The notes: generated by a model not told the origin, from the letters alone. DNA of 64,000 nucleotides from Candidatus Melainabacteria bacterium 17Bon1m (GCA_032128875.1 JAVLKG010000003.1:353008-417007); one strand, 5' to 3'; numbered from the stretch's first letter, positions 18,662 to 34,728 are shown. Numbers and translations are program-made.

Positions 18662-18878
18662 GAATTGATACCTGCTGGATTTGGTGGACTTGCTGGGATT
18701 GTCGGCTACTAGCCAACACCCTATCCCGGTCATGCAAACGGCATGAAAGCTCGGCTTCGGTAACTTCAAGAAGTGCTACCATTGCCTTCTCGGTCCACCG
18801 GGGACATTTTACATCCTTGGCAACGAGTGCAATTTGGCACAGGGTCGTGTTATGACACTGGTCTAACGATAGAGACCG

Positions 18879-20105
18879 ATGACTGGCAAGCATCTCCACG
18901 TTTTTCCACAAGAAGCGACTGTTCAATTGGGACAAGTCACTTATTCTGCGGTGGTGGAAAAACCTGATGGGCAAAAGGAAAAACTCTGGTATCGTCTGCC
19001 TGAAGCGTATCTCGATGCAATCGATGACAGCGCCGACTATCTAGTGATAGCTAACATCTTTCAGGCGATGGAAGCAGGTGTGGACTGCCGCGTTCACGGT
19101 AGAGTGTCGAGTACTTTGTTGCGAAACGTGTCTGAGTTTCAAAGCCTCTGGGCAACCTGGTTTCCAGAGCGCTACAAGTGCGTGGACATTATTGCTGATA
19201 TTGAAGATGGTCCCAATATTTACGGAAATGGTTCGAATCACTCAGGTGACGAACATGGCGGAGCAGCTGTTTTGAATGCGGCAATTGCTGCATATACAGG
19301 CGGAATCGACAGCTCCTACACTGTTATGCGACACCATCGAAAACTATGCGGGCGAATGACTCAACCTTTGCGCGCTTGTCTTTTCGTGCATGGATTCGAC
19401 ATACCCTTGCCAGATGAGGATGCGTTTCGGCGGGTCGAAGAACGGCTAAAGAAGACTCTTTTGGATACGAACCTTGAATTAATTCCAATGGCAAGCAATC
19501 ACAAAGAATTAAATCAACAATGGGATCACACTCACATTGCCGGCGTCGCATCTTGCCTTATGTTGCTGAGTAAACGCTTCGATAGAGCCCTCATCGGAAG
19601 TACATTTACGTATCACGAAGCGTCCATGAAGTGGGGCAGCAACCCTATTTCCGACCGCCTGCTTTCCAGCCACAGGATGAGTTTCTTTCATGATGGTGCT
19701 GAAACCGGGCGCGGTGGAAAAATGGTGGCGCTGCGCGATTGGCCTGAAGCATATGATGATTTGCGCATATGCTGGAGCGCTGCCAACAAGGACGAAAATT
19801 GTGGAACGTGCGGAAAGTGCGCGTTGAGTTTGCTGGGCTTTAGGTATAAAAATCTTCCCTTGCCGAAGTCCTTTCCTTCGGGTCTTTCAGAATCAATGAT
19901 CGAAAATCTGGTCTTTGACGAATCGCATTTGGGAGCTGCCGAAACACTCTTGAAGTTTGCATTGAGAGAATCAGAGCAAGCACCGTGGGTAGCGGCACTA
20001 AAGAAGTGCGTGAAAACCAATCAGGAACGATTGGGCGCCACGAATAGCGGCAAAGGTACATTCTATAGCCGTGTGAAACGCAGGCTTGGTCGCCTTACGC
20101 AGTAA
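18879..20105 (+). CDS. PP-loop (adenine nucleotide alpha-hydrolase-like) protein with QueC-like Cys motif, copy 1
   Basis: YTGGIDSSY PP-loop and RICW..NCGTCGKC motif; paralog of 31272-32447. Confidence 0.75.
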   Translation: MTGKHLHVFPQEATVQLGQVTYSAVVEKPDGQKEKLWYRLPEAYLDAIDDSADYLVIANIFQAMEAGVDCRVHGRVSSTLLRNVSEFQSLWATWFPERYKCVDIIADIEDGPNIYGNGSNHSGDEHGGAAVLNAAIAAYTGGIDSSYTVMRHHRKLCGRMTQPLRACLFVHGFDIPLPDEDAFRRVEERLKKTLLDTNLELIPMASNHKELNQQWDHTHIAGVASCLMLLSKRFDRALIGSTFTYHEASMKWGSNPISDRLLSSHRMSFFHDGAETGRGGKMVALRDWPEAYDDLRICWSAANKDENCGTCGKCALSLLGFRYKNLPLPKSFPSGLSESMIENLVFDESHLGAAETLLKFALRESEQAPWVAALKKCVKTNQERLGATNSGKGTFYSRVKRRLGRLTQ

Positions 20106-20119
20106 TTTTAGGATCATTC

Positions 20120-20172
20120 GTAGGGGCGGCGCATGCGCCGCCCTGGCAGGGAGCCGCATGCGGCTCCCCTAC
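20120..20172. repeat. Inverted pair of GTAG-type REP palindromes between convergent genes
   Basis: GTAGGGGCGGCGCATGCGCCGCCC ... GGGAGCCGCATGCGGCTCCCCTAC. Confidence 0.85.
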
Positions 20173-20205
20173 TTTAAAGTGTTAACGACCGACATCGCTA
20201 AGGTG

Positions 20206-21006
20206 TTAAAGTCCGACGCCCAGAGCCAGCAAGGCGCATTTGTCCAAGCCGTCAAAACCTAGAGATGAATTGATTTCTGAGTCTACGAATCCCGCGGTTG
20301 CACAGACGCAAAGTCCGAGTGCGTTTGCAGTCAAATAGATGTTTTCTGAGACGTGACCGGCATCCATTAATCCGAGCCTGTATGCTCTAATGGTGTATTT
20401 CTCCGCCAGGCGAGCCATATCGCAAGACAGAATCAGTACAGCGCCAGCGTCGCCAAATTCGACTTGAAGAATTCCGAATTCCTTGAGCCAGGTCGAGAAA
20501 TTGCCTTTTTTCTTTAACACGAGTTCGTGCTTGCGCCGATCAAATCTATAGATCCCCGGCTCAACTCCTTCGATATTTAAAACAAATAGGTCTATTTGGG
20601 TTGAAGCTAATCCGCCTGCGGAGGGGAAGTTGAAGCCAGCCCCGTAACTCGTTTCTGTTTTGTCGGAAGCTTCAGTCGCCTGCGTACGTGCGCCATTTGC
20701 AAGATACAATACCTTTGCTAAATGCGACACTGGAAGAGCTTTGTTGGAAAAACTCTTCTTGCTCGTTCGATTCGTGATTGCTGTTTGTACTGGCATATCT
20801 GCACTTACAGCATTTACATCGAGTTTGATTCGCACTTCTTGCGCAGCACCTTCGACCGTCTTTTCGGCGGTCTCGCTGCCTAGAGGTGAAGCACTTCGTT
20901 CATAGTTCATCTCATAAGATGCGCGGTTCCATTTCGCAGCCTTTTTGTTACAGCTTTCAGTGTGGTAGACATCGGCGCTTGAGCCGGGATTGTGGATTAG
21001 TTTCAT
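20206..21006 (-). CDS. SagB/ThcOx family FMN-dependent azoline dehydrogenase, cassette 1
   Basis: NRTSKKSF, FPSAGGL, GIYRFD, KYTIRAYR, DAGHVSENIYL, GFVD nitroreductase-fold motifs. Confidence 0.9.
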   Translation of the reverse strand: MKLIHNPGSSADVYHTESCNKKAAKWNRASYEMNYERSASPLGSETAEKTVEGAAQEVRIKLDVNAVSADMPVQTAITNRTSKKSFSNKALPVSHLAKVLYLANGARTQATEASDKTETSYGAGFNFPSAGGLASTQIDLFVLNIEGVEPGIYRFDRRKHELVLKKKGNFSTWLKEFGILQVEFGDAGAVLILSCDMARLAEKYTIRAYRLGLMDAGHVSENIYLTANALGLCVCATAGFVDSEINSSLGFDGLDKCALLALGVGL

Positions 21007-21008
21007 AC

Positions 21009-22316
21009 TTATGGAAATGGATGTGCGTCGTGGTTGAAGTCTTTTGCAGAACGTTGAGTTGGAGTGTCATTGCATAAACGTGGGCAAGCGAGCCAGCGCA
21101 CTTTGTGAGCGACAATCAAAGGCACCATTTCCGGTACCGTCACTTTGACGCACACGCCAAGTTCGCTGGCTTCGGTCGAGGTGAGATCGCTCCACATAAC
21201 GGTCAATCCAATTTCTTCCAGGCGTCTTGCGACGTTTGCCAAATCCTCCATGGAATGTGGCGCCTGAAGCCAATCTCTGTCCTTATAGTCTTGCAGTGTA
21301 ATTTCATTCGTATTGTCTTTTAGAAGGAAGTCCAACGCTGGACTATTGGGCCAATTTGCATAGAGATTGGCGTGGTCGGAAAATGATTTGACCCAATCGA
21401 ATTCGGTAAATGACTGAACCACTGCATCGCTTCCAAATTTATGTTGCGCAAAACGTATTGCCATCGCTTCGTCGATCGCGCCGCAGCATGCGATTTCAGC
21501 ATCTTCATGGGCCGATGCACCGGCAACATAATATGGAAAGCGTTCGCTTTCTAATACGCAAAATACTGCCGGTATCGGAAAGTCGCGCGTCATGCTGAAA
21601 ATGTTTACTCTTGTCCCGCTCTTTTCTATAAGTGAGATGCGCTGCCCAAGCTCTCGCCCGACAGATTCCTTTTCTATGCGCAATTTTGGTATAGAAACTT
21701 TATTGAGCCAAAAGATCATCATCTGATCTCTTTCGGCAAGTTCGAGCAAACCTGACCAGATCGCTTGTACTCTATTGCTGTAGAACGAAAGTCCGGCAGA
21801 AGTGGGAAGAGCGATGAGCGGTTCTGGAGCTTTCGCCCAGAACGACATGTGCACAGTGCCTGCGGGAATCCAGTAATCCTTTCCGTCGCTTCCGTCCTTC
21901 AAACGTTTTGCCGGTGTATGAGTTAGAAGTGTGTCGTCTGCATAGCCGATACCTGGACCTTTGAAGCTGTCGCTGCATGTTTCATCGGGCAAGCAATAGG
22001 GAAACAGTTTCAAAAGCTCGCTATCCCCTGCTTTCATCTGTCGCAGTTCCGCTGAGTGCAGTGAGTTGTAGCCCGTATAACGCTCGACTGCTTCACCTAG
22101 TGCACGCAGCATTGCTTCGTTGGGATCCAGCGAACAGCCCAAAGCATTGGGCGTGTCGGCAGTAAAAAACTTTCCTATCGTTCGAACCAGGTCGCCTTGG
22201 TACAGCCACCACGGCGGTTCTGGTCGCTCCAGGCGCATTCCCCGAAAGCGTGTAATCGGTCCGAACCGGGGGTTTACCCAATTCAAAACCGGTGCAAGCG
22301 GTCCTGGGCTATGCAT
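21009..22316 (-). CDS. YcaO cyclodehydratase (D protein), cassette 1
   Basis: GEAVERY, SAGLS, LELAERD, IDEA ATP-binding motifs; C-terminal HPFP; ATG 22316 overlaps the upstream gene end. Confidence 0.92.
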   Translation of the reverse strand: MHSPGPLAPVLNWVNPRFGPITRFRGMRLERPEPPWWLYQGDLVRTIGKFFTADTPNALGCSLDPNEAMLRALGEAVERYTGYNSLHSAELRQMKAGDSELLKLFPYCLPDETCSDSFKGPGIGYADDTLLTHTPAKRLKDGSDGKDYWIPAGTVHMSFWAKAPEPLIALPTSAGLSFYSNRVQAIWSGLLELAERDQMMIFWLNKVSIPKLRIEKESVGRELGQRISLIEKSGTRVNIFSMTRDFPIPAVFCVLESERFPYYVAGASAHEDAEIACCGAIDEAMAIRFAQHKFGSDAVVQSFTEFDWVKSFSDHANLYANWPNSPALDFLLKDNTNEITLQDYKDRDWLQAPHSMEDLANVARRLEEIGLTVMWSDLTSTEASELGVCVKVTVPEMVPLIVAHKVRWLACPRLCNDTPTQRSAKDFNHDAHPFP

Positions 22317-23448
22317 ATGCAGAGTCTCTTTCCGGCTGCACGTCGCCACGGACATCAACCGCGCCACTGAAACAGTCAGGGCATCGTGCAACCTTTTTGA
22401 CTTTGAGTTGCTCGGTGTGTCCATCAAAAGTGTTGAATATCACTGCTCCTAATGTGACAGGCAAGCTGATCTTGGTTATCGCTCTAATAACTTCCATAGA
22501 AATTTGCGCACCTCCTGCGGTGGCAAAGGCCAGGGATTCTCCCTGCATTGGTCTTTCGCTCTTAGGCAAGGATTCTATATGCTGCGAATAGAGGGATTCT
22601 TCGATAGGGTGATCGCTAGCGCTGCGCGTGCGCAAGACATAGCACGTGTAGCAAGCTGTATCGCGAGGCACTACGAGTGGACCGATTTCGAGTTCTACCG
22701 CACTCTCATTTGCGCGCAGCCAATCAATTGGCGTTTCGAGCGAAATTTGGTTGATGCGGTTGAAAAAGCTTTGAGGTGCGTTTCGCGTAGCTGTGACCAA
22801 AAGATCTGCTGTGTCTACTTTCGATTCAATTAATTCGGCAAGGGTGTCGAGGGTGTCGGCATGGGTATAGCTAGTCTGCATGCCATTGTTTTGCGCATCT
22901 TCAACTAATTTCTTTAGGTCTGTGTTGTTAAGTCTGTCGATCACTTCAATTGTATTGATGCCCGATCGGTGCAGAATATCGAACGTGCAGCATCCTAAAA
23001 GCCCGTCGGCGACAAGAACTATCTTCGCTCCCTTCAGTTTGCTTTCCACTTCTTTGGCTGATGTATTGTTGCGCGTAAAACCAAGTTTTCTACCCCAGAA
23101 TAAGCGCTGTTTCGCGTCCAGCCCTTGTTTGCCTGTCTCTACCGATGCCTCTTTCGTCTCGGCATCGACCAAATAGCCCTTTCTAACGAGCAGTAATAGC
23201 AGCTCTTCAATCTCAGCCTCATGTGAGCCAGCTGGGCGACTTTTGACGATGTTTTCCAATGATGTCTTTTGCTTAAGTTCGCCAATTAGCCAGGGCATCA
23301 AGCCGACTGCAAGCCGCCCGCGCACTACAAGATTTGTCGCGCCACCGCGCACTTGCATCCCCAACCCGTCAGGCATTTCGAAGACGTCGAGGTCATCAAC
23401 CAGGGTTGGTTTCTTGGGAAAGCGTAAGTTCGGGTCTTTGATAGTCAT
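22309..23448 (-). CDS. E1/ThiF-like leader-peptide-binding partner of YcaO (C protein) with N-terminal RRE-like region, cassette 1
   Basis: Winged-helix-like N-terminus (LLLLVRKGYLVD), Rossmann-like IVLVADGLLG, IGPLVVPRDTACYTC, C-terminal RCPDC. Confidence 0.88.
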   Translation of the reverse strand: MTIKDPNLRFPKKPTLVDDLDVFEMPDGLGMQVRGGATNLVVRGRLAVGLMPWLIGELKQKTSLENIVKSRPAGSHEAEIEELLLLLVRKGYLVDAETKEASVETGKQGLDAKQRLFWGRKLGFTRNNTSAKEVESKLKGAKIVLVADGLLGCCTFDILHRSGINTIEVIDRLNNTDLKKLVEDAQNNGMQTSYTHADTLDTLAELIESKVDTADLLVTATRNAPQSFFNRINQISLETPIDWLRANESAVELEIGPLVVPRDTACYTCYVLRTRSASDHPIEESLYSQHIESLPKSERPMQGESLAFATAGGAQISMEVIRAITKISLPVTLGAVIFNTFDGHTEQLKVKKVARCPDCFSGAVDVRGDVQPERDSAYA

Positions 23449-23502
23449 TTTGATTCTCTTGTAGATTGCCGATCTTACAAGCTTTTATGGGGTGTAAGAA
23501 GA

Positions 23503-23536
23503 AAAAATGATAGCCAGTTTAGTGACTATCATTTTT
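23503..23536 (-). terminator. Hairpin/terminator between precursor genes and cassette-1 enzymes
   Basis: Minus strand aaaaatgatagtca-ctaaac-tggctatcattttt with a U tract. Confidence 0.65.
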
Positions 23537-23560
23537 GAATGATTGAATTTGTCTCAGCTT

Positions 23561-23761
23561 TTAGAAATCTGCCAATGGTGTCGGCGGCACGAATTCGCAG
23601 CCATCGCAGGCGCACGGTCCTTTCGGAACTGCCATTTTCTGATTGCGTTGCGAGATGGTTTCAACAACCAGCAATTTCTCAACATCAGTGTTGTTCAGAT
23701 AGTTGAGGTAATCGGCTTGGAAGTCTGCAGTTTCGGTGATTGTGTTCTTTAGAGATGACAT
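23561..23761 (-). CDS. RiPP precursor peptide A3 (66 aa; core ...KGPCACDGCEFVPPTPLADF)
   Basis: AGGGG RBS before ATG 23761; paralog of A1 and A2; adjacent to YcaO machinery. Confidence 0.88.
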   Translation of the reverse strand: MSSLKNTITETADFQADYLNYLNNTDVEKLLVVETISQRNQKMAVPKGPCACDGCEFVPPTPLADF

Positions 23762-23783
23762 CTTTTGCCCCTGTTGTTTGCTT

Positions 23784-23987
23784 TTAGAACTGAAAATCTG
23801 GTGTTGGGGGTTGGAATTGGCAGCCGTCGCATGCGCAGGGACCCGACGGCTTGGCCATGCGCTGATTGCGCTGAGAAAGGGTTTCAGCGACAAGCATCTT
23901 ATCGAGTTGTTCGTTGGCGTTCAGATAGTTCAAATAATCTGATTCGAACTCGTTTGTCTGGCTTGTAGTTTGATTTTTGGCTGACAT
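23784..23987 (-). CDS. RiPP precursor peptide A2 (67 aa; core ...SGPCACDGCQFQPPTPDFQF)
   Basis: AAAGGG RBS; paralog of A1 and A3. Confidence 0.9.
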   Translation of the reverse strand: MSAKNQTTSQTNEFESDYLNYLNANEQLDKMLVAETLSQRNQRMAKPSGPCACDGCQFQPPTPDFQF

Positions 23988-24010
23988 TTTGATGCCCTTT
24001 CTGAGTGTTT

Positions 24011-24211
24011 TTAGAAACTAAAATCTGGCTGCGGTGGTTGAAATGTGCAGTTGTCACATGCACACGGACCCGATGGCTTGCTCACGGTTTGTTGTTGCTG
24101 AGAGAGAGTCTGAGCAACAAGGGCTTCGTCAGCGCCTTGTTTGAAATCGAGATAGGTTTGGTAATCTTGCAGAAATTCCAAAGCTTCGTTTGACTGAAAA
24201 TTGTTTGACAC
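24011..24211 (-). CDS. RiPP precursor peptide A1 (66 aa; core ...SGPCACDNCTFQPPQPDFSF)
   Basis: GTG start at 24211 with AGAGGG RBS gives a length matching the paralogs. Confidence 0.88.
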   Translation of the reverse strand: MSNNFQSNEALEFLQDYQTYLDFKQGADEALVAQTLSQQQQTVSKPSGPCACDNCTFQPPQPDFSF

Positions 24212-24348
24212 AGCTTCCCTCTCTATTAATGATGGCCACTTATCCCTGGCCGCCGAAAGCATATTATCTTATTGACAATCTTGGTGGCGTAACAGTGGGC
24301 GCGGAATTCGGCGATAATGCAAAAGGTTACGAACCGGACAGCATCGCA

Positions 24349-25704
24349 GTGAGTCCAGATTCCACCCCGGACCTTAACTCCCCGACGGGACAAGAAAGAG
24401 CGACCGGGAAATCAAATTCAGCTATTGATTCGCTCTTTTCCTTCTTTCTGCTGTCGGAAGATGGATTAGATGCGCTGAGCCGAATAATGGGCTTGCTTTC
24501 GATTTACACGTGTTTCGAAATCTTTAAAAGGCTTAATTGGTTAAGAGCGGAGTATCAAGTCGAATCCTGGTGGTGGCGGGACCAGTGTCTTGCGTTGCCT
24601 GATTCTGAAACCCTGGCCATTATTTTGCTTTCCATCTGTGCCATCGCCGGACTTGCGATGGTGTTCGGCGTAAGAAGTAAGCTGGCGCCAGCCGTGGTGG
24701 CATTATGCGTCTTGTACCTGACATGTTTGGACGTGAATATTGCATTTCCGCATAGCTTTTTTCTTGCCATTTGGGTTTGTGTGGCGTTGATCTTCAGGCG
24801 CGCCAGAAGGTCCGCAACCCGCCGCCTTATCCAGCTTGCTTTGTTCGCTTGTTATTCGCTTTCCGCCCTGCAAAAGATCTTTACCCCGCAGTTTATTCAA
24901 GGGGATTCGCTTGCGGCATTGAAATACGGACCCAACCTGGATGCCTGGGTCTTGAAGGCTGTCAGCCAGATTCCCAGTTCGTCGGGATTGTGGCAGCTTT
25001 TCGCAATCGTCGTCGTTGTTGTCGAACTCGCTCTTGCGCTTGGCCTGTGGCATCCGAAGACTCGCAAGTTTGCTGTCGTTGGCATCATTGTGTTTCAGTC
25101 GCTGATTCTTCTGACCATGGATCCGCGCATTCTGCCTCTTCACTTGATGATCTGTCTTTGCTGTCTTTCCTTTGTCAACCCAGTTGCAATTGAAAAGCGA
25201 TTTGCATGGCTGACGAATAGAGTCGAAGCGTCCGCCGGTTCTCTTGCTGGTTTGAAAGAGCTGGACTGTAAGCCACCAGGGGTGGTGTACACAACACTTA
25301 CCATTCTCGCCACTGGGATCTTCTTTGCTATCCCATTAAGGATTTATCTCTATCCGAACGCATTCGAGCAAATGTCGATGATGGACAGGCGTCCATGGAC
25401 ATTTTGCATGTTTGTGTGTTTGGAAGGGCGGTACAAGACAAGCATTGTCTTGAAACGAAAAGACGGCAATCTAGTCTGGGTTGAACCACGCGGAAGAATG
25501 GCTTACTTGTCCAGCGACACTGACATGCTGGCGTTAGCAAAGTATCTGGAAAAAACATATCCAGGCGTTTTGGAAATCAAAATAGAGTCGCAATACGACG
25601 TAAACATGACCAGCCGAGACCACAAGGTTCTCACGGCGCAAGCTTGTGATATCGGAGGCTTTAAACACCGAATAAGCTGGCACAGAGAGGCTTTAAAATA
25701 CTAG
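24349..25704 (+). CDS. HTTM-domain membrane protein (SdpB/vitamin K-dependent carboxylase N-terminal-like); start uncertain
   Basis: Multiple TMs with YSLSALQK...FIQGDSL and VVELALALGLW.PKTRK motifs typical of HTTM; soluble C-domain with PWTFCMF. Confidence 0.7.
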   Translation: MSPDSTPDLNSPTGQERATGKSNSAIDSLFSFFLLSEDGLDALSRIMGLLSIYTCFEIFKRLNWLRAEYQVESWWWRDQCLALPDSETLAIILLSICAIAGLAMVFGVRSKLAPAVVALCVLYLTCLDVNIAFPHSFFLAIWVCVALIFRRARRSATRRLIQLALFACYSLSALQKIFTPQFIQGDSLAALKYGPNLDAWVLKAVSQIPSSSGLWQLFAIVVVVVELALALGLWHPKTRKFAVVGIIVFQSLILLTMDPRILPLHLMICLCCLSFVNPVAIEKRFAWLTNRVEASAGSLAGLKELDCKPPGVVYTTLTILATGIFFAIPLRIYLYPNAFEQMSMMDRRPWTFCMFVCLEGRYKTSIVLKRKDGNLVWVEPRGRMAYLSSDTDMLALAKYLEKTYPGVLEIKIESQYDVNMTSRDHKVLTAQACDIGGFKHRISWHREALKY

Positions 25705-26630
25705 TTACGCATGCCAAGTTTTTTCAGCGCTACATAGGAAATTTGCTTGGCTAGCCTGGGAGCGCTTGCAAGAATCTGCTCTGAGTGTTGTGCCTGTTTT
25801 TCGAGTGTTTCATACTGTTGCAAGAGATCGTGAAACTCCTTGCTTAGCTTCTCATAAGTCGCTTGTCTGGTATCAACTTCTGGCTTCACGTAATTTTGAG
25901 TCTGCATATTTTTGATCATGCCTTCAAGCATTCGAGGCAAATGCTCCTTTGTAGACTCAAGATGTTGAAGAAGTACTTTTAAAAATTCGAGGTCCAGCGT
26001 TTTGACGTTTTGGCTCCAGGAATCAGAGTGCCTGCGATAAAAGTATAAGGGCTCAGGATGGTAAGCAAATTTAGTGCCGATTTCTAGAAGCGAAATCCAA
26101 AATTCAGTGTCCACAATTGCTTTTATGTTCTTGTATCCACCAACTTTGTCATAAGATTCTCGCTTTAGAAGCAGAGTGTTGTGTGGATAGTGTCCTGAAA
26201 TAATATCTCCCAGGTCGGCGCTAGGCTTATACACATAGTTGTGAATGCCGAAGACTTGAACATCGCTAAAGGCAGCAGAAGCATTGTTTTCGTTCATCAC
26301 TTTGAGCGTCGCTTCAATGTAGTTTGGTGCGATTAAATCATCGCTATCCAGTGGCAGTAGCAGCTCTCCATTGCTGTTGCGGGCTGCGGTATTTCGAGTT
26401 TCACCATTCCCGCGGTTGGTTTCATGGCGGAAAATCCTGATGCGGGGATCGCTGAAATTTGCCAGCACTTCATCAGCTGGGCAAACAGGAGAACAATCAT
26501 CGACAATGACGAGTTCCCAGTTTTGATAAGTCTGTGCGACCACGCTGTTGACGGTTTCCACCAGATAATTGCCAAGTTTGTAATACGGAGTAAGTATGCT
26601 CACTAGTGGTTGAGCTGTAGTCGTTTTCAT
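25701..26630 (-). CDS. GT2 glycosyltransferase with C-terminal coiled coil
   Basis: VSILTPYY, QTYQNWELVIVDDCS, RN, LDSDD, VGGY, YRRH. Confidence 0.92.
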   Translation of the reverse strand: MKTTTAQPLVSILTPYYKLGNYLVETVNSVVAQTYQNWELVIVDDCSPVCPADEVLANFSDPRIRIFRHETNRGNGETRNTAARNSNGELLLPLDSDDLIAPNYIEATLKVMNENNASAAFSDVQVFGIHNYVYKPSADLGDIISGHYPHNTLLLKRESYDKVGGYKNIKAIVDTEFWISLLEIGTKFAYHPEPLYFYRRHSDSWSQNVKTLDLEFLKVLLQHLESTKEHLPRMLEGMIKNMQTQNYVKPEVDTRQATYEKLSKEFHDLLQQYETLEKQAQHSEQILASAPRLAKQISYVALKKLGMRN

Positions 26631-26638
26631 TGCTCGAT

Positions 26639-27559
26639 TTACCGCAACCCCGCCTTTTTCAAGGAAACATACGAAAGTTGGCGCGTCAGTTGCGGCAGGC
26701 TCGCCAGCATTTCTTCATTGCGCCTGACACGTTTTTCCAAACTTTCATACTTTGCTCTCAGGTCGGCGTATTCTGATTGCAAATGAGAAATTTCCGAGTC
26801 GATTTGGCTGGTGCTTTGTGCGGCATAGTAAGCCGCCTTCTGCTCTATCCATTTTTCGAGCACGACTTCCAAGTGTTGGGAAAGTGAATGATGATGTGAA
26901 AGCAAGACTTCCAGAAAATCTTTCGCGACTGCTGAACCTCGCATGCGCATGAGTCCATCTTCATGAGTGCGATACAGATAGAGGGGCTCTTCCACGAATG
27001 CGAATTTAACGCCTGATTCGATTGCTGAAATCCAAAACTCAGTATCTTCGATTGCAGCAATGGGCTTGTAGCCACCTACTGAGTCATAGACTTCTCGCTT
27101 CATTAGCAGTGTATTGCAGGGATAATGCCCTGAAAAAATGTCGCATAGGCGTGTGCTGGGCGTGTAGATAAAATCGAATTTTCCGAAGTACTTTACTTGC
27201 GAGTAAGCGGCTGATGATCCCGTTTCTCCCAAGGCTCTCAACATTTTTTCGATGTAGGTCGGCTCCAGCAAGTCGTCTGAATCGAGTGGCAATAGATATT
27301 CGCCTTTGCTGTTTGAAGCGGCAGTGTTGCGCGCTGCCGATACACCTAGATTTGAATCGTGCCGCAATAAGCGGATGCGCGGATCGGTTTGCTGCGCAAG
27401 TACAGAGGTTGCCGACATTTCTGGAGAGCAATCGTCAACAACAAGGAGTTCCCAGTTTTGGTAAGTTTGCCTCTTGACTGACTCAACTGCTTCGACCAGG
27501 AACTGACCAAGTCGGTAGTAGGGCATCAAAATGCTGATGAGAGGTTGGTTCGACTGCAT
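26639..27559 (-). CDS. GT2 glycosyltransferase with C-terminal coiled coil (tandem paralog)
   Basis: ISILMPYY, QTYQNWELLVVDDCS, GVSAARN, LDSDD, EDTEFW. Confidence 0.92.
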   Translation of the reverse strand: MQSNQPLISILMPYYRLGQFLVEAVESVKRQTYQNWELLVVDDCSPEMSATSVLAQQTDPRIRLLRHDSNLGVSAARNTAASNSKGEYLLPLDSDDLLEPTYIEKMLRALGETGSSAAYSQVKYFGKFDFIYTPSTRLCDIFSGHYPCNTLLMKREVYDSVGGYKPIAAIEDTEFWISAIESGVKFAFVEEPLYLYRTHEDGLMRMRGSAVAKDFLEVLLSHHHSLSQHLEVVLEKWIEQKAAYYAAQSTSQIDSEISHLQSEYADLRAKYESLEKRVRRNEEMLASLPQLTRQLSYVSLKKAGLR

Positions 27560-27711
27560 CTTTGGATATCCTCTGTCTGCTGTACTTTAAAGAACCCGCT
27601 ATTTCAACAAGTTAGTTCTGTGTAATTTTGGAGTTTTATCTTTTTCAATTGACACTCGACATCAGGCCAAGTGGTTAGCATTGTGGATAGGGGTCATCCA
27701 GGAGTTCTAGT

Positions 27712-27966
27712 ATGGGTTTTCGCAAGTCATTCAGTAGCGGCTATCTCGGTTACGTGAAAGCTACAACGCGTTCCAGTGCAGAGGGTCTACAGTCCTTTGC
27801 TTTGGGTCAAAACAATTCGAATTCGCAAGGCTTTTCGGCAGCTGGTCCATGCTCTTGTGCTTGCACATGCCCTTGCGCATGCGCCAGCTCCTGCTCATGC
27901 GCTTGTACTTGCCCATGTGCCTGCGGCAGTAGTTGCTTTACTCCTCCTGCTCCTACAGATAACTAA
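27712..27966 (+). CDS. RiPP precursor peptide B (84 aa; 13-Cys alternating core)
   Basis: AGGAG RBS; core GPCSCACTCPCACASSCSCACTCPCACGSSCFTPPAPTDN; first gene of cassette 2. Confidence 0.92.
   Translation: MGFRKSFSSGYLGYVKATTRSSAEGLQSFALGQNNSNSQGFSAAGPCSCACTCPCACASSCSCACTCPCACGSSCFTPPAPTDN
27850..27933 (+). repeat. 2 x 42-nt coding repeat (CSCACTCPCAC[AG]SS)
   Basis: Amino acids identical at 13 of 14 positions while most codons differ. Confidence 0.85.
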
Positions 27967-28033
27967 GCCAGCTGTCTCTATCTTCTAAAGCACCGGGCAT
28001 CGTAAAATGAATCTTGCCCTGTGAGCGTATGTC

Positions 28034-29176
28034 ATGCCAGAGAAGGACAATAAGAAGGCGCTTTCCTTTTTGAAGGAAGGCGGCACTAACTTTCCGAAGC
28101 GGCCAAAACTAGTGGAAGACGTCCTGGTCTTTCACATGCCGGACGGTTTGGGCATGCAATTTCGCGGACTATCCAGCCCTGTTGTATTGCGGGGGGCACT
28201 TGTCGAAGCGCTGCTTCCAAAGCTATTGCCCTTGCTGAATGGAGAGCATGAGATTTCGCAGCTGTTTGAGAAGTGCGGCGCAGAATTTGAGCCCGCTGAT
28301 GTGGCGGCCCTTCTTTTGAGTCTTTTTACCCGTGGGGCAATTGCAGAGGCGGAAGCGGAAAGATATCCCCAGGCTGTTGTTGATAGAAAGACTCTGCTCT
28401 TTCATGGAAGAAGGTTAGGCGTAACTCGCAATAACAATTCTTCTTCGCAAGTCGTGAAGAAGTTATCGCGCGCTCACATTGTGGTAATTGCCGATGGATT
28501 GCTTGGTGCAAGCACCATCGATTTGTTGAGTCGATCCGGTTTTGAGAAGATTTCCGCAGCAGCTCTAAAATCAAGTACAGATGCAGCTGAAATTTTTTGC
28601 GAATTGCAGAGCGAATTCAACGTCGAGTACATCGAAGGAAACGAGAACGGCATCAAGAACTTCTTGCACGGGCGCCAGGAATCAGCCGACCTTGTATTAG
28701 CAGCACTACGCAATGTGCCGCAATCTCTCTTTGTCGCGCTCAATGAAGAATGCGTTCAAGCAAATGTTGAATGGTTGCGCGCTTACGACAATGGCAGTGT
28801 TATAGAGTTGGGTCCTTATGTAAACCCGCACGATACCGCGTGTTTTGAATGCATGCTTGTGCGTGAAATTAGCGCCGGCGAGCATTCTGTAGAGGAAGAG
28901 CTTTATCAGAAATTTCTTGAAGAAGGCAGGTCTACCGATTTTATGTGCGGTGAGTCGATAGCGCTGGCAACTCAGGCTGCTGCATACTTGACCCAGGAAG
29001 CCGTGCGAATAGTCACTGCCATTGAAAAACCTCAGTTGGACGGACGCGTACTTAGCTTTCACTCGGATGGTAACATCGATCAAAATACCTTCACACGCGT
29101 GCCGCGATGCGAAGTGTGCGCACGAGCCGGAGCCTTGGTTTTGCCGGAGAAAGAGCATGCCAGTAAGCTCTCGTGA
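28034..29176 (+). CDS. E1/ThiF-like leader-binding partner (C protein) with RRE-like region, cassette 2
   Basis: Paralog of 22309-23448 (FPKRPKLVEDV.VF.MPDGLGMQ.RG, LGPYVNPHDTACFEC, RCEVC). Confidence 0.88.
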   Translation: MPEKDNKKALSFLKEGGTNFPKRPKLVEDVLVFHMPDGLGMQFRGLSSPVVLRGALVEALLPKLLPLLNGEHEISQLFEKCGAEFEPADVAALLLSLFTRGAIAEAEAERYPQAVVDRKTLLFHGRRLGVTRNNNSSSQVVKKLSRAHIVVIADGLLGASTIDLLSRSGFEKISAAALKSSTDAAEIFCELQSEFNVEYIEGNENGIKNFLHGRQESADLVLAALRNVPQSLFVALNEECVQANVEWLRAYDNGSVIELGPYVNPHDTACFECMLVREISAGEHSVEEELYQKFLEEGRSTDFMCGESIALATQAAAYLTQEAVRIVTAIEKPQLDGRVLSFHSDGNIDQNTFTRVPRCEVCARAGALVLPEKEHASKLS

Positions 29177-30476
29177 AAAACTGGGAAGCCTTGCTTCGGT
29201 TTTGGATCTGGTCGATGACAGGTTCGGTCCGGTTAAGAGCATCTACGGCATAAAGACGACCGGGAAACAACCGCCATTCTGGGTTTTTCACGCTCAACTG
29301 ACGCGCCCTTTGGGACAGTATTTTGTTGATTATGACTGTGACGCTTGGGGCTCTTCCGTCGACAAGGATGAAGCCTTGTTCAAATGCCTGGGTGAAGTTC
29401 TCGAGCGTTACTGCATGTACAACACCTTTTTAACCGGAGAATTTGCGCAGCTTCCGGCATCTGAATGCCAATTGCTCAGGCAGTTTCCACGTTGTGCTCC
29501 TGACGAGAGATGCGCCGATTCATATAAGGAAATATCGCCAGACTGGACTTTGACGATGGCATCCGTCAAGGAAGTTGCAACAGGTAATGCCCATTGGATT
29601 CCCGCAGGCTACGTAGACTTTTCCTATCAGTCTCCTGAAGGCGAGCCAAGAGTGACACTGTCGCATTCGTCCGGTTCGGCATTCCATGAAAATCTTCACC
29701 GAGCAATATGGGCTGGGCTCTGCGAAGTTGCTGAAAGAGACGCATTTTCGCTTTTTTGGCTGAACCAATATTGCGCCAAAGAGATAACTTTTGATCTGAA
29801 TTTCGGCAGCGATACTGCAGAATTAAATTCCCTGGCAAAGCGACTGAAACTCATTAAAGACTCAGGATTGCGAGTTCGCAGCTTTGATATTACGACTGAT
29901 TTTAGAGTCCCGACGGTTTTTTCAGTCGTTCAGGGCGATGAATTTCCGTTTGCCACTTTTGGTGCCTCTTGCTCTGCAGATCCTGTGAAGGCTGTAATTA
30001 AGTCGATTGATGAAGTCTTTCTGGTGCGCTTAGCACAGCTCAGTGGTGAAAAGGAGGTTCTCGATGCTCCGTCTTATACAGACTTCTCCTGGGTTAATCA
30101 ATTGCGCGATCACTGCGATCTTTACGCTAGGTGGCAAGACACTCCAGCATTCGATTTCTTCATGAAAAAGTCGGAGACCATCTCGCTTTCAGAGTTACGG
30201 CAAATGAGCTGGTGGTCCGAGCCTGACAGTTACGAGCAGCTGCGCGATACATGTGCGATGCTTCAAGAGCGCCTTGGCATGACGGTTTTGTTTATGGACT
30301 GCACGCTTGATGATGTATCAAAATTTGGAGTTGGAATCAAAGTTGTGGTCCCGCAAATGCAGCCGATCAGTGTGCCAGAGTCGCTCAAATGGTTGGCGCA
30401 CTTGCGCCTCGCTCAGCATGCTGAAAGACTATCGCTCAAGTGTGCGAGCAATCCTTACCCGCATCCATTTCCATAG
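29157..30476 (+). CDS. YcaO cyclodehydratase (D protein), cassette 2
   Basis: GEVLERY, SSGSA, CEVAERD, IDEV; C-terminal PYPHPFP; start ATG 29157. Confidence 0.93.
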   Translation: MPVSSREKLGSLASVLDLVDDRFGPVKSIYGIKTTGKQPPFWVFHAQLTRPLGQYFVDYDCDAWGSSVDKDEALFKCLGEVLERYCMYNTFLTGEFAQLPASECQLLRQFPRCAPDERCADSYKEISPDWTLTMASVKEVATGNAHWIPAGYVDFSYQSPEGEPRVTLSHSSGSAFHENLHRAIWAGLCEVAERDAFSLFWLNQYCAKEITFDLNFGSDTAELNSLAKRLKLIKDSGLRVRSFDITTDFRVPTVFSVVQGDEFPFATFGASCSADPVKAVIKSIDEVFLVRLAQLSGEKEVLDAPSYTDFSWVNQLRDHCDLYARWQDTPAFDFFMKKSETISLSELRQMSWWSEPDSYEQLRDTCAMLQERLGMTVLFMDCTLDDVSKFGVGIKVVVPQMQPISVPESLKWLAHLRLAQHAERLSLKCASNPYPHPFP

Positions 30477-30484
30477 GTAGACAA

Positions 30485-31267
30485 ATGCGAATTACAGAAA
30501 GGAAAATGGCTGCAGACCTCGCTTGTGACTATCACACAGCGAGCAATAATTCTCCATGGCTGCTGAAGTTGCCTGTGATTCGTCAGGTCAACTACAGCGA
30601 GCACGTTCAAGAATTGATGGATGAAGGTCCGAGGCAAATCGATTCGGTAACAGATGTTCGAACTTTTCAGCAAGTTGCCGAGACATCTGAAATGACTTTG
30701 CTAGAGGCGCTTGCGCGCAGAAAAAGCTCACGGGAATTTTCTAAAGTTGCTCTGGATTTGCAAAAGTTGGGTCAATTACTCGGACTTTCTAATGGGCTGC
30801 GCAACAAAGTAGGCAATGCCAATGACGGAGGGAGAAACGCTCCCAGTGCCGGGAGCCTTTGCTCTTGTGAAATGTATGTGTTGGCGCTGAACGTCGCTGA
30901 TCTTGAAAAAGGTATTTACCACTATGATGTGGGCGCTCATGGATTGAAGAAGATCAAACTCGGCGATTTCAAAGAATGGTCGAAGCGAATGCTTCTTCTG
31001 CAGTCGGAATTGTGCGACTCTGCGGCGTTGATTTTTCTTGCCAGCAATCAAGGACGCTTGCGCAGCAAATATGGTCCTCGCGCATATAGACTGGGTTTAC
31101 TGGATGCAGGGCATGTTTCTGAGAACCTCTATCTGGTGTCAGCTGCGCTCAATCTTTCAGTGACAGCTACGGGTGGTTTTATTGATGATGAGATAAATCA
31201 TTCGCTCGGCTTGGACGGAGTCGATGATTGCGTAGTGCTTGTTCTGGCGGTTGGTGAACCGGGCTGA
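30485..31267 (+). CDS. SagB/ThcOx family azoline dehydrogenase, cassette 2
   Basis: RRKSSREF, APSAGSL, GIYHYD, KYGPRAYR, DAGHVSENLYL, GGFID. Confidence 0.92.
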   Translation: MRITERKMAADLACDYHTASNNSPWLLKLPVIRQVNYSEHVQELMDEGPRQIDSVTDVRTFQQVAETSEMTLLEALARRKSSREFSKVALDLQKLGQLLGLSNGLRNKVGNANDGGRNAPSAGSLCSCEMYVLALNVADLEKGIYHYDVGAHGLKKIKLGDFKEWSKRMLLLQSELCDSAALIFLASNQGRLRSKYGPRAYRLGLLDAGHVSENLYLVSAALNLSVTATGGFIDDEINHSLGLDGVDDCVVLVLAVGEPG

Positions 31268-31271
31268 GCAG

Positions 31272-32447
31272 CTAATATGGCGGCTTTCCAAACAGGGCTT
31301 TTATTCTCTCGCTGGTCTGTTTTAGTCCGTGGTGAATTGTATTCTTCGGCCTTAAGCGTTGCCGATTAGTCGCTATCAAATCGGAGAGCTGATTGCGAAA
31401 CGGTAGTCTGTTGCCTATTTTCAGAAGGGTTTCTAATGCCTCGAGATGAACCTCGTCAAGTTCTTCAATATCTTGAAAAACATCTTCAGACAGCGCTTGT
31501 GGAAATGAGCAAGGCGTCGGAAGCTGCAACATGCTGATAAGCATTAGTGTGATCAAGCACTTTCCGCACCGCCCGCAGTTTTGGTCTTTCTTCGGATTTG
31601 AGTAACAGACGCGAATTCGCTCGTAAGCTGTCTGCCATTCGCGCAAATGATAAAGCTTAGAGCCGCGATTCCAAATGGCACCATCATGGAAAATGGAAAA
31701 ATTTCTGCTGGACATTAGATGATCACTTGTCGGATTGCTGCCCCAGAGCGGCGCCAGGTCGTTGTAGCAGTAGGTGCCTGGAATAATTCCTTCGGAAAAG
31801 GTGCGCTTGAAAAATGTCAAACAAGATGCAATTCCGGCTGCATGCGTTTCATTCCAGTCAGGAAAGAGAAGGCGATGATTGGACTGAATTGGATACAGAG
31901 GCACGCCGACAGACTTGAGCGTGTCTTGATTCGTCCTGAACGCTCGTTGGTAAGCCTCTTCATCTTCCAGCGGAATGTCAAAGCCATGCACAAAAAGCGC
32001 TGCTCCCAGATTGCGTTTTAGTCGACCGCAAATTCCCGATGCGTGTCGATAAACCGTAAAACTGCTGTCGAGTCCGCCGGAGAAAGCGCATATAGAGCGA
32101 TCAAGGTCGGGAAAAACATCTGTCTCTGCCTCAGTTTGGGCAGTAATTTCCACCCGACTGTATTTGCCAGGCAGGTTGGCGTACCAGTAAGCCTGGAATT
32201 CCATCAAATTGCGAATGAGGAATGGAGAGACTGTGCCATGAACATGCACGTTAGCTTTAGCAGTCATCGCTGCGAAAATTGCGGCAATGAGGTAAGGTTC
32301 TGCACTTCCCGTCAAATTTTGCGCAAGCTCTTCCGACACCCTGTACCAGAGCTGTTTGCGTTCTCCATTGGGAAATTCGATTTCGGCCGAAAGCTCGACT
32401 TGTCCGTCAACCAGCTTGGGCTCTAATGGGTAAATATTGGTACGCAT
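31272..32447 (-). CDS. PP-loop protein with QueC-like Cys motif, copy 2
   Basis: FSGGLDSSF and RVCY..NCGRCGKC; paralog of 18879-20105; start ATG 32447. Confidence 0.75.
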   Translation of the reverse strand: MRTNIYPLEPKLVDGQVELSAEIEFPNGERKQLWYRVSEELAQNLTGSAEPYLIAAIFAAMTAKANVHVHGTVSPFLIRNLMEFQAYWYANLPGKYSRVEITAQTEAETDVFPDLDRSICAFSGGLDSSFTVYRHASGICGRLKRNLGAALFVHGFDIPLEDEEAYQRAFRTNQDTLKSVGVPLYPIQSNHRLLFPDWNETHAAGIASCLTFFKRTFSEGIIPGTYCYNDLAPLWGSNPTSDHLMSSRNFSIFHDGAIWNRGSKLYHLREWQTAYERIRVCYSNPKKDQNCGRCGKCLITLMLISMLQLPTPCSFPQALSEDVFQDIEELDEVHLEALETLLKIGNRLPFRNQLSDLIATNRQRLRPKNTIHHGLKQTSERIKALFGKPPY

Positions 32448-32548
32448 ACTGCATTTGTATAACAATGCCGAATGCATAATCATGAGACGGTTGTCATGTT
32501 GCTTTTGGCTGAGCGAGTAGACTGATAGAAAAACGCAGTCCTCTGACC

Positions 32549-33562
32549 ATGCAAAAAGCGCCGCTGATCTCGATTGTCATCACTTACTACAGCTATGCCG
32601 ACTATCTGTTGGAAGCAGTGGCGAGTATTAACGCGCAGACATATCGCAATTTCGAAGTAATTATCGTAGATGATGGTTCGCCCGAAAAACACGTGTATGA
32701 GCTGGATTTCGGAGCTATTGAGTTTCCTCTCAAAATCGTTACGCACGAGTCCAACAAAGGTCTGCCGGAAGCTAGAAACACTGGTGTTAAACAGGCATCA
32801 GGTGAGTTTCTCGTAATAATGGACTCCGACGATCTTATTGAGCCAACGTTCTTGCAAGATACGTTGGCTGTGCTCCAAAACTCTGATAATGACGGCGTTT
32901 ACACTCATATGCAGTTGTTCGGCGCACGCGATTATCTCTGGACGGACGAGGTTTCTCTCATTTCTCTTCTTGCTGGAGAGCCTGGACCCGTAACATTCTT
33001 GATGAAGCGAAAGGTTTTTGAAGAAGTGGGCGGTTATAACCAGCACCTGTCTCTCAACAGCGATCACGAGTTTTGGGTCGCGGCTTTGGGCTGCGGCATG
33101 AAGTTTGCTCGCCTGGAGAAAACCTTATTCAAATACCGCAAGCACGAGCAAAGCATGTCCAGCGTGAATCGCGATCAGTGGTGGCAATCTATTCCTGTTC
33201 TTTTAGAACACCACAAGGAGTTGTACGACCGTCATTATCCGGAAGTCTTGGCTTTCAAAGAAAGACAATTCAGAAAGCTTGAAGATCAGTATGACACGCT
33301 CTATCAAGAGTGGCTCGAAGTAGACGCTGAGTCCAGGCGTGTTCACCAGATCCACAAGGAAGCGCTGAAGCGCATGTCCTTTGCCGATCAAGTGTTTCAG
33401 AATCCAGTTTTGCGAGCGCTATTTTTTCTTTTCAGGCGCAGTCCAAACAGCACCATCGATTCCGCCGTTGACTCCGCGCTTACGGTCTCGGCGAAAACTG
33501 CGCCGGACAGCAATGCCAAAGTCACAGGTATAGGCGACACTCGCAGAGTTGTGTCGCGCTAG
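32549..33562 (+). CDS. GT2 glycosyltransferase with C-terminal coiled coil
   Basis: QTYRNFEVIIVDDGS, GLPEARN, MDSDD, VGGY, DHEFW. Confidence 0.92.
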   Translation: MQKAPLISIVITYYSYADYLLEAVASINAQTYRNFEVIIVDDGSPEKHVYELDFGAIEFPLKIVTHESNKGLPEARNTGVKQASGEFLVIMDSDDLIEPTFLQDTLAVLQNSDNDGVYTHMQLFGARDYLWTDEVSLISLLAGEPGPVTFLMKRKVFEEVGGYNQHLSLNSDHEFWVAALGCGMKFARLEKTLFKYRKHEQSMSSVNRDQWWQSIPVLLEHHKELYDRHYPEVLAFKERQFRKLEDQYDTLYQEWLEVDAESRRVHQIHKEALKRMSFADQVFQNPVLRALFFLFRRSPNSTIDSAVDSALTVSAKTAPDSNAKVTGIGDTRRVVSR

Positions 33563-33612
33563 TAAGTTCGACAGAGTTAGAACTCATTCGAAGTATTTGG
33601 AATGAGTTTGCG

Positions 33613-34728
33613 CTAGTTTGTGCTGGATTGAATGAACTGATTTATTTGAGATTCGTCAGCCAGAAAACTGCAATTTCTGTTTTGCATTTTCCAGGTGGAA
33701 AAGAACTGTTCATTCTTGTGGTAAGAGTTTGATACCAAGCCATTTTTTACGCCCAGAATGCATGAGGTCAAATGCGCGTGCAGACGATCTGTGATGACCA
33801 AAACGCATTCGGAAATTTGTCTTATCGCATCGAAAGCAATCATCCAGGAAAAAAGCGTCTGCTCGCGATTGGGCATGGCTTCAAGTATTGGAGCAAATCT
33901 CTTTGAATAGCGCCACTTGATTCGATCAGGCAGTCGATGTGGTTTGGAAATTCCTCTTTGCCAAAGTTCGCGCACTGCATATACCGAGCCTGGTAGTTTT
34001 TTATAAATTTCAGCTGGCTCTGAAAGCTTGCCGCGCCCGTCGTAGAGCCATTTGTAAGTCTCCCAGTCTTCGACCGGTAGATTCGAGTTGCTGGCTATTT
34101 CTGAAAGCTGTTTGTTCGATGACTCTTTATCTGCTCGAATGAGAAACTTTGTTTTTCCTTTTTTCCGTTTTTTGAAAAACATTTGAATCACTGGTGCGAG
34201 CATGAAAACCATGTCAGGGGCGAGAATTACGCGAGCATTCGTAAAATGCTCCTGGGCAAATTCAAAGCTCTTTTGGTCGCGCGTGAAAATTGTCAGGTTT
34301 GGATGTGAGTTGAAAACATGTTTGGCCGCATTCAGTGCTTCGTCATCAGAGAAGAGAATTGATTGCGGCATGATGTAAATCGGACAATCATGATTATCGG
34401 CGATCACGCGTTCGCGAAACTTTTGGCTGTCGGGCCAGATATCACCCAGGTTGCCTCCACCTTGCAAAAATATCGGTGCAGTGCCATTTTTCTCTCTCAT
34501 CGCTTTCTGATCGAAATCAACAAGAGATGAAGTGTAGGTAATTCGTGCTTTTCTCTTCTCGATTAGGAAGAAGCATGTGCCGAGCCAGATCAAATGATCT
34601 CCCGAATTGAGATGATCCGGATAGTCGAGAAAAGCGCACTGCTGGAAGCTCTCGATTTGCGCGAGAGCCTCCGATAGCTGCGTTTCCAGAGGCAGATCTT
34701 TCAGATGTTGTGCCTCTGACTTTTCCAT
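33613..34728 (-). CDS. Polysaccharide pyruvyl transferase family protein
   Basis: NSGDHLI, LQGGGNLGDIW, MPQS, TRD, APDM, ITDRLHAH, NSYHK. Confidence 0.9.
   Translation of the reverse strand: MEKSEAQHLKDLPLETQLSEALAQIESFQQCAFLDYPDHLNSGDHLIWLGTCFFLIEKRKARITYTSSLVDFDQKAMREKNGTAPIFLQGGGNLGDIWPDSQKFRERVIADNHDCPIYIMPQSILFSDDEALNAAKHVFNSHPNLTIFTRDQKSFEFAQEHFTNARVILAPDMVFMLAPVIQMFFKKRKKGKTKFLIRADKESSNKQLSEIASNSNLPVEDWETYKWLYDGRGKLSEPAEIYKKLPGSVYAVRELWQRGISKPHRLPDRIKWRYSKRFAPILEAMPNREQTLFSWMIAFDAIRQISECVLVITDRLHAHLTSCILGVKNGLVSNSYHKNEQFFSTWKMQNRNCSFLADESQINQFIQSSTN

Follow-up and report, generated by a model that had tools for sequence, protein, structure and literature searches.

A stretch of 64,000 nucleotides from Candidatus Melainabacteria bacterium 17Bon1m (GCA_032128875.1 JAVLKG010000003.1:353008-417007), referred to here as the window, probably encodes a new family of peptides made on ribosomes and then modified post-translationally (RiPPs), of the linear azol(in)e-containing peptide (LAP) type, served by two old paralogous modules. 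Positions 18879-34728 hold two mirror-image cassettes, each with genes for an E1-like partner protein (C), a YcaO cyclodehydratase (D) and a SagB-type dehydrogenase (B); three short precursor genes (A1, A2 and A3) lead cassette 1, a fourth (Bp) leads cassette 2, and a gene for a QueC-family protein (Q1 or Q2) lies beside each. The initial annotation of this DNA had described the gene order and strands in the same way, and the map of open reading frames (ORFs) agrees with it exactly; the twin YcaO/SagB cassettes with four related Cys-rich precursors inside a glycosyltransferase locus were confirmed by the ORF map, family models and alignment. Its further proposal, a new linear azol(in)e peptide system unlike known precursors, is supported at the level of the genes. 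The core enzymology of LAP machinery is already known; what is new is the precursor family, the pairing of modules as mirror images, a host from the Obscuribacterales and the constancy of the QueC-family companion. Searches of the published literature, supplements aside, gave nothing on a RiPP or thiazole system of this kind in Obscuribacterales or Melainabacteria, nor on a YcaO accompanied by a QueC-like protein.

Cassette enzymes and precursors

The components of a LAP, or thiazole/oxazole-modified peptide (TOMM), locus are all present: a YcaO protein, an E1-like partner with a RiPP recognition element (RRE), a SagB dehydrogenase and, beside these, a precursor composed of a leader and a core rich in Cys, Ser or Thr. 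The reading of a split E1-like C protein, a YcaO D protein with a Pro-rich tail and a SagB protein as azole-installing machinery was supported, in that all three types occur twice and were recognised by PF02624, TIGR03605 and TIGR03882 (Table 1). The PF02624 match of the YcaOs spans profile positions 2-324 of 325, and both proteins end in a Pro-rich tail, a feature typical of azoline-forming YcaOs. With an alignment of 14 relatives, AlphaFold2 (AF2) modelled C2 at a pLDDT of 80.6; in Foldseek the model matched MccB (E 1.2e-18, TMq 0.65), then TruD, LynD and PaaA, at full length over approximately 360-380 columns, all four being RiPP enzymes that combine a peptide clamp with an E1 domain.

The host, which the names of its sequence matches place in the Obscuribacterales (Melainabacteria), has a 7.55-Mb genome that is 93% complete and carries no YcaO genes other than D1 and D2. 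Identity between paralogues is 40% for Q1/Q2, 40% for B1/B2, 37% for D1/D2 and 36% for C1/C2, and all ORFs are intact; at 36-40% identity, the duplication of the cassette is judged to be old. With D2 as query, matches were obtained in 11 of 41 related genomes (the host's own counted), all of them in the host's family (10 of 24 genomes there; none of the 16 genomes from seven other families matched), and in 8 of 12 genomes of the host's genus. A check of synteny, as suggested at the outset, found the full twin locus in three congeneric Obscuribacterales genomes (G003, G007 and G011), in an unchanged chromosomal position and with one or two A-type genes instead of three; cassette 2 stands alone in two more, G008 and G010 (loci L014 and L015). 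G008 retains Q1 and a remnant of the membrane-protein gene equivalent to 43 amino acids, which shows what appears to be a recent loss of one module with the other kept. Because the twin arrangement recurs in three other congeners and cassette 2 alone in two more, the layout is not attributed to chance.

Four further, more diverged cassettes were found (L016-L019), together with a fragment (L100). In L018, a third cassette type from a congener, the order is C, B, three tandem single-Cys precursors and D, and an M50 metallopeptidase gene lies directly upstream of C (L018 6354-7223, 9338-10042), a candidate leader peptidase such as the host window lacks. The cassette of L017 (1636-3842) is followed by genes for a cytochrome P450 and an arginyl-tRNA-protein-transferase-like (ATE) protein, possible extra tailoring enzymes. 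The distant cassette of L019 is flanked by a family 2 glycosyltransferase (GT2) gene and a sugar epimerase gene.

Established LAP systems include those for microcin B17, streptolysin S, plantazolicin and the heterocycloanthracins. The present locus shares with them the split E1-like C protein, the YcaO D protein, the SagB-type B protein and a neighbouring precursor made up of a leader and a Cys-rich core; it differs in that its precursors lie outside curated families and have a leader motif of their own as well as a Gly-Pro-Cys (G-P-C) junction that is invariant, in that it contains no CAAX- or TldD-type protease and no ATP-binding cassette exporter, and in that two diverged modules face each other, each flanked by a QueC-family protein, with YcaOs that fall under the SagD-type cut-off. 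Of the solved chains, those closest in sequence to C2 and D2 belong to the cyanobactin heterocyclases MusD, LynD and TruD (weak E values, 4e-8 to 8e-6), and these enzymes recur where the fold of C2 was matched at full length. However, theirs is a fused protein of approximately 780 amino acids, whereas here the E1-like and YcaO parts are encoded by two genes, and the fold alignment shows an identity of just 18%. No protease or macrocyclase of the PatA/PatG type was found in scans of the region's ORFs (those of at least 200 amino acids, 18.8-34.8 kb); since C and D are split and PatA/PatG proteases are absent, the system is not regarded as a cyanobactin.

In both cassettes the precursor genes lie directly upstream of C, Bp being separated from C2 by 67 bases. 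When A1, A2, A3 and Bp were aligned, a common leader motif, the G-P-C junction and, behind the core, a stretch rich in Pro were apparent. The three Cys residues of A1-A3 lie near the C-terminus. A precursor profile recovered Bp from the own genome as a relative of the A-type (E 5.5e-8), and Bp looks like the A scaffold into which a Cys-X array has been placed. Its core contains a 42-nucleotide tandem unit in 1.9 copies with 78% match (27850-27929), a duplication that shows how the array presumably grew. Orthologues of Bp carry 13-15 Cys, and across five of them the Cys positions are kept and the intervening residues vary.

Across six cassette types (the two of the window, L017, L018, L019 and L100), a small ORF with an invariant G-P-C lies in or beside the cassette, preceded by an F-x-x-D-Y-x-x-Y-[LIV]-like leader motif and followed by a hypervariable core that ranges from one Cys to 13-15 alternating Cys; several of these cores contain a single Cys after G-P-C. 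The D-Y-x-x-Y element is present in five of the six types, L017 having the variant D-R-Y-V. A regular expression for the leader motif plus G-P-C, which misses the L017 variant, gave 18 matches with conserved leader and variable core, and the L017 variant and a third L018 copy were added by listing ORFs; the same expression gave zero matches in six control loci without cassettes (L025, L026, L097, L098, L099 and L101). Because G-P-C is invariant and the cores are otherwise hypervariable, its Cys would be the one constant modification site of the family, and the cores with three or with 13-15 Cys are, by comparison of the sequences, probably lineage-specific elaborations. The term poly-thiazol(in)e, applied to these peptides initially, therefore suits Bp with its 13 Cys but not the A-type, with only three, and the site kept family-wide is the single Cys of G-P-C.

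That the precursors do not resemble those of cyanobactins, microcin B17, streptolysin S, plantazolicin or thiopeptides, as proposed initially, was supported: they match no curated model and have almost no relatives. NCBIfam returned no family for any of the four at E values up to 10, and Pfam no match for three of them, A3 giving only two at chance level (E 0.14 and 0.2). Among 5.77 billion protein clusters, A2 has six relatives and Bp three, all from Melainabacteria or Obscuribacterales where the source gives a name. A ten-sequence precursor profile run against 1.84 billion representatives retrieved two true precursors; two long proteins of 3100 and 1133 amino acids (E 2.8e-5 and 9.7e-5) were matched over leader positions only and are regarded as unrelated, and two weak genome matches of the precursor profile (G107 and G114) have internal stops and were set aside.

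We infer every chemical step of the following scheme from the genes and their relatives. The N-terminal peptide-clamp (RRE) domain of the C protein would bind the leader that carries F-x-x-D-Y-x-x-Y-[LIV]; the YcaO D protein would then convert core Cys residues to thiazolines by ATP-dependent cyclodehydration, and the SagB-type flavoprotein B would oxidise these to thiazoles. Precursors are assigned to modules by adjacency only: C1/D1/B1 would act on A1-A3, with the G-P-C Cys as the first of three sites, and C2/D2/B2 on Bp, turning most X-Cys pairs into 2-aminoalkyl-thiazole units, to which Ser or Thr residues between the Cys could add oxazoles. Chances are about even that Q would then activate a carboxylate with ATP and form an amide on the peptide; the alternative is that Q works only with the glycan-type genes of the locus.

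The QueC-family companion

Q proteins are approximately 400 amino acids long, and their relatives are annotated only as hypothetical. The label QueC-like, given to Q1 and Q2 initially, was not reproduced by Pfam QueC (PF06508), for which Q2 scored 16.2 bits against a cut-off of 22 and Q1 gave no match; what stands is the fold. An AF2 model of Q2 (pLDDT 88.9) had as its best Foldseek matches in the PDB QatC (9y02_B, E 4e-7, 398 columns), then QueC (3bl5) and Cap9 (9nto), the fold of Q1 being deduced from the Q2 model. A PP-loop motif, SGGxDS, and four Cys residues are invariant in an alignment of 20 Q relatives. The two genes were treated as bystanders at first, yet their constant adjacency to the cassettes proved the least expected feature of the locus. 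Each of the six cassette types whose flank can be read has Q next to it, and three gene orders occur among them.

QatC, of the QatABCD system, is described as consisting of an N-terminal alpha/beta extension, a QueC core that holds a Cys4 zinc site, and C-terminal helices (PMC13279940), and by that description Q2 has the same three-part build. QueC-family proteins, QatC and Cap9 among them, are reported to act on protein N-termini (PMC13279940; 10.1101/2025.04.06.647259). Q2 nevertheless differs from QatC and from Cap9 of type IV CBASS in sequence, with 13-14% identity, and scores 11.2 bits with the NCBIfam QatC model NF041925, against a cut-off of 280. Other NCBIfam Qat-system models had no match among the scanned ORFs, no search with QatA, QatB or QatD sequences having been made. 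Because of the NF041925 score and because the neighbours are RiPP and glycan genes, the locus is not interpreted as a Qat defence system.

A FastTree phylogeny of 91 Q rows, which has local support only and joins long branches readily, placed all 14 cassette-linked and all seven radical S-adenosylmethionine (SAM)-linked Q proteins in one clade of 25 rows (local support 99); one gene was entered twice (L014_Q1 is L022_17625), and its label as cassette-linked derives from cassette 2 within 6 kb, its own cassette being lost. Where a lineage is named, members of this clade come from Melainabacteria, Obscuribacterales, Obscuribacteraceae or a 'Cyanobacteria bacterium'. The radical SAM partner of the sister Qs resembles the FxsB/YhhB peptide maturases (E 4.6e-108; 361.5 bits against a cut-off of 370). 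Divergent pairs of this kind occur in six other loci (L032, L035, L046, L059, L066 and L071), five from Melainabacteria or Obscuribacterales and one from a 'Cyanobacteria bacterium', and also in the host's own genome, where the gene for an FxsB/YhhB-like radical SAM/SPASM maturase stands divergent to that of a third Q paralogue (L097 9487-12349) and a 52-amino-acid ORF just upstream of the maturase (10904-11062) is a possible precursor. These cyclophane-forming (triceptide-type) maturases perform another RiPP chemistry in another locus, and bear on the present one only in that they give the Q family a second partner among peptide maturases. In a distant Q relative of 507 amino acids (P0085, labelled Arenicellales), residues 77-138 form an N-terminal PqqD domain, which is of the RRE type.

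The host genome holds further Q-like genes: two tandem and more distant ones beside a GT87 glycosyltransferase gene (L099 7238-11182), one of them with a Pfam QueC match at E 2.1e-6, and a sixth that adjoins a methyltransferase-like gene (L098). In the same genome, 93% complete, there was neither a canonical QueC above the cut-off nor a QueD/PTPS, which makes a deazaguanine donor for Q unlikely; deazaguanylation was therefore dropped as the specific chemistry of Q, the absence not amounting to proof. A complex prediction for Q1 with A2 scored 0.00 against a mark of 0.32 and counts in neither direction. In a review of the QueC family (PMC13329287), a term search for YcaO, RiPP, pyruvyl, glycosyltransferase, radical SAM and peptide returned none of them.

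Locus layout and neighbouring genes

Between the cassettes lie a gene for a polytopic membrane protein and two GT2 genes, GTa and GTb; beyond Q2 follow a third GT2 gene, GTc, and a pyruvyl transferase gene (Table 1). Since farther out the genes have the look of housekeeping ones (for DnaK, SRP54, the glycine-cleavage T protein, a diguanylate cyclase and an HD-domain protein), the block is treated as an island of approximately 16 kb.

Table 1. Features of the island, with positions counted from the first letter of the window. Model cut-offs are 25.7 bits (PF02624), 78.4 bits (TIGR03605), 36.9 bits (TIGR03882) and 219.25 bits (TIGR03604).
Feature	Position or order	Strand	Basis and remarks
Q1, QueC-family (QatC-like) PP-loop ATPase	18879-20105	+	convergent with cassette 1
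Cassette 1, order of transcription	A1, A2, A3, C1, D1, B1	-	ORF map
B1, SagB-type FMN dehydrogenase	20206-21006	-	TIGR03605 106.4 bits; PF00881 E 2.2e-12
D1, YcaO cyclodehydratase	21009-22427	-	PF02624 145.5 bits, E 3.1e-42; TIGR03604 190.9 bits; C-terminus ...HPFP
C1, RRE + E1-like partner protein	22309-23448	-	TIGR03882 37.3 bits; ThiF 30.5 bits
Terminator-like hairpin	23503-23536	-	14 pairs and a T run, between A3 and C1
A3, precursor, 66 amino acids, 3 Cys	23561-23761	-	ORF and alignment
A2, precursor, 67 amino acids, 3 Cys	23784-23987	-	ORF and alignment
A1, precursor, 66 amino acids from inferred GTG start, 3 Cys	24011-24211	-	orthologues in L012 and L013
Polytopic membrane protein, possibly HTTM/VKGC-like	24190-25704	+	start uncertain, ATG at 24229 possible
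GTa, GT2 glycosyltransferase	25701-26630	-	PF00535 E 1.3e-28; C-terminal coiled-coil-like tail
GTb, GT2 glycosyltransferase	26639-27559	-	PF00535; 53% identical to GTa; divergent from Bp
Cassette 2, order of transcription	Bp, C2, D2, B2	+	ORF map
Bp, precursor, 84 amino acids, 13 Cys	27712-27966	+	ORF and alignment; Cys mostly at alternate positions
C2, RRE + E1-like partner protein	28034-29176	+	TIGR03882 46.2 bits; ThiF match
D2, YcaO cyclodehydratase	29022-30476	+	PF02624 163.8 bits, E 8.4e-48; TIGR03604 191.7 bits; C-terminus ...PYPHPFP
B2, SagB-type dehydrogenase	30440-31267	+	TIGR03605 130.8 bits
Q2, QueC-family (QatC-like) PP-loop ATPase	31272-32483	-	convergent with cassette 2
GTc, GT2 glycosyltransferase	32549-33562	+	PF00535 E 4e-28
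Polysaccharide pyruvyl transferase	33613-34728	-	PF04230 E 2.7e-27

The coordinates of D1 are those of the longest ORF, although translation probably begins inside it, at an ATG near 22319 that overlaps the stop of C1; the likely start of D2 is an ATG near 29154, and that of B2 an ATG at 30485, orthologue alignments of B2 beginning at residue 15-16. With the internal starts of D1 and D2, C and D overlap by approximately 11-23 bases, which would fit translational coupling. The hairpin between A3 and C1 could attenuate read-through; terminator-like sites in the region as a whole are no more numerous than in shuffled sequences, and this one is suggestive by position and stem length only.

For the membrane protein, the name HTTM found no backing in Pfam: neither Pfam nor NCBIfam returned a family at E values up to 0.01, DoxX appearing only at 0.062. 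The ESM Atlas linked it to HTTM/VKGC_lumenal clusters at 0.98, 0.94 and 0.93, which supports the name as a lead only. A relative with 45% identity adjoins Q in the cassette-less loci L025 and L026. The trio of Q2, GTc and pyruvyl transferase has orthologues in L025-L027 without C, D or B. GTa and GTb are present, divergent from Bp, in all five related loci that contain cassette 2 (L011-L015), and no counterpart of either was found in the cassette-less base locus (L025 and L026). In a comparison with glycocins, peptides that GT2 enzymes glycosylate, the three glycosyltransferases, all GT2, had polysaccharide enzymes as their best named matches, each under its cut-off, and no glycocin-type model was among their matches at E values up to 0.001. 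Glycosylation of the peptide by GTa and GTb is possible, and unsupported beyond their co-occurrence with cassette 2.

The space between Q1 and B1, which are convergent, contains a palindromic element of approximately 55 bases (20117-20173), whose outer stem encloses two GC-rich hairpins. The element is dispersed, with 53 matches in the own genome, some of which are one copy counted on both strands, and assembly-graph breakpoints fell on it in four runs; it looks like a repetitive extragenic palindromic (REP) element or a bidirectional terminator. Approximately 7 kb upstream of the island, a tetratricopeptide-repeat (TPR) protein that contains a retropepsin-like aspartyl protease domain twice is encoded at 10457-11719, with no link to the locus seen.

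Alternative explanations and significance

Several observations weigh against a new LAP-type family with Q as a peptide-directed member. Both YcaOs score below the NCBIfam SagD-type cut-off (TIGR03604; 190.9 and 191.7 against 219.25 bits), their best matches elsewhere in the phylum are 23-26% identical and occur in 10 of 400 other sampled genomes, and the Pfam and NCBIfam scans of the region's ORFs returned no protease or transporter family. Three runs recorded as RNA-Seq gave 21-kb contigs identical to those of the DNA run of the same sample over 18000-35500, at even depth and on both strands; they therefore carry no information on transcription or its absence, and probably contain DNA or carry the wrong label. 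As regards Q, species-representative genomes yielded 287 Q loci, and counts were made on 77 of these. C, D and B together occur in only eight of the 77, seven from Melainabacteria, Obscuribacterales or Cyanobacteria and one (L086) labelled just 'bacterium'. Commoner companions are pyruvyl transferase (27 of 77, from many phyla), GT2 (28-36), Asn-synthase-like proteins (16) and Wzm/Wzt (10-13). Orthologues of Q2 with 66-68% identity stand in the cassette-less loci L025 and L026; in five of the six types Q and the cassette converge and do not share a direction; and since the cassettes are homologous to one another, the adjacency of Q may be partly inherited and not independently selected.

These counts speak for plain LAP cassettes having landed and been duplicated in a glycan locus, where a polysaccharide or glycolipid would be the sole substrate of Q, of the three GT2s, of the pyruvyl transferase and of the HTTM-like protein. 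Such an origin has a substantial chance of being correct, somewhat short of even: most of the 77 Q loci counted have such glycan-type companions and no YcaO, the trio of Q2, GTc and pyruvyl transferase exists with the membrane protein free of any cassette in L025 and L026, the named matches of the GT2s are polysaccharide enzymes, if sub-threshold ones, and the orientation of Q agrees with it. It sits less easily with Q standing right beside every cassette type with readable flanks despite rearranged gene orders, with the pairing of a sister Q clade with a second, unrelated peptide maturase, with the PqqD-Q fusion, with GTa and GTb being found exactly where cassette 2 is and missing from the base locus, and with the GT2 and sugar epimerase genes that also flank the distant cassette of L019. 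Whether Q acts directly on the peptide is accordingly judged about evenly balanced. A more specific version, to be held only tentatively and by analogy with QatC and its kin, is that Q is a new RiPP tailoring enzyme which would form an ATP-dependent amide on the thiazole peptide, that GTa and GTb may add sugar, that the product may be a capped and possibly glycosylated poly-thiazole, and that the Q family may also serve FxsB-type cyclophane peptides. The target of such a reaction could be the amine exposed at the Gly-Pro-Cys junction after removal of the leader, or a carboxylate of the peptide.

Other explanations concern the cassettes themselves. The C-X-C runs of Bp and its orthologues, with 13-15 Cys, resemble metal-thiolate peptides of the metallothionein pattern, and Bp might be an unmodified Cys-rich metal-binding peptide with the YcaO genes as mere neighbours. 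This is very improbable, given that its leader and G-P-C junction align with those of the A-type precursors, that it immediately precedes C2 in the window, as its counterparts precede the C2 orthologue in five of five related loci, and that no Pfam or NCBIfam family, metallothionein included, matched it at E values up to 10. The sub-threshold SagD-type scores, together with a weak match to the McrA-thioamidation YcaO model (48-64 bits against 365), leave a small chance that the YcaOs perform thioamide or amidine chemistry and not azoline formation. An E1-like/RRE partner and a SagB protein beside a YcaO are typical of azole formation in LAP systems, and both accompany each YcaO here; no TfuA-like match was found among the region's scanned ORFs (Pfam and NCBIfam), and the one invariant core residue is Cys. 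That the cassettes are decaying remnants without a product would accord with the loss of cassette 1 in G008 and G010 and with the Q1 gene and membrane-gene fragment left in G008, and is likewise very doubtful: none of the ORFs in the window is broken, several species keep intact orthologues with 60-92% protein identity, and the Cys positions of the precursors are conserved. A new LAP-type family remains the favoured interpretation of the two cassettes.

Thiazole- and oxazole-containing peptides include inhibitors of DNA gyrase and of the ribosome as well as cytolysins. With a leader code of its own, cores of one to 15 Cys and two co-resident modules, the family described here would offer a system in which to study how pairs of heterocyclases diverge in their choice of substrate. 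If it is true that Q acts on peptides, the protein-modifying role lately discovered for QueC-like enzymes would have been carried from phage defence to natural-product biosynthesis, and a widespread family annotated only as hypothetical would gain a function.

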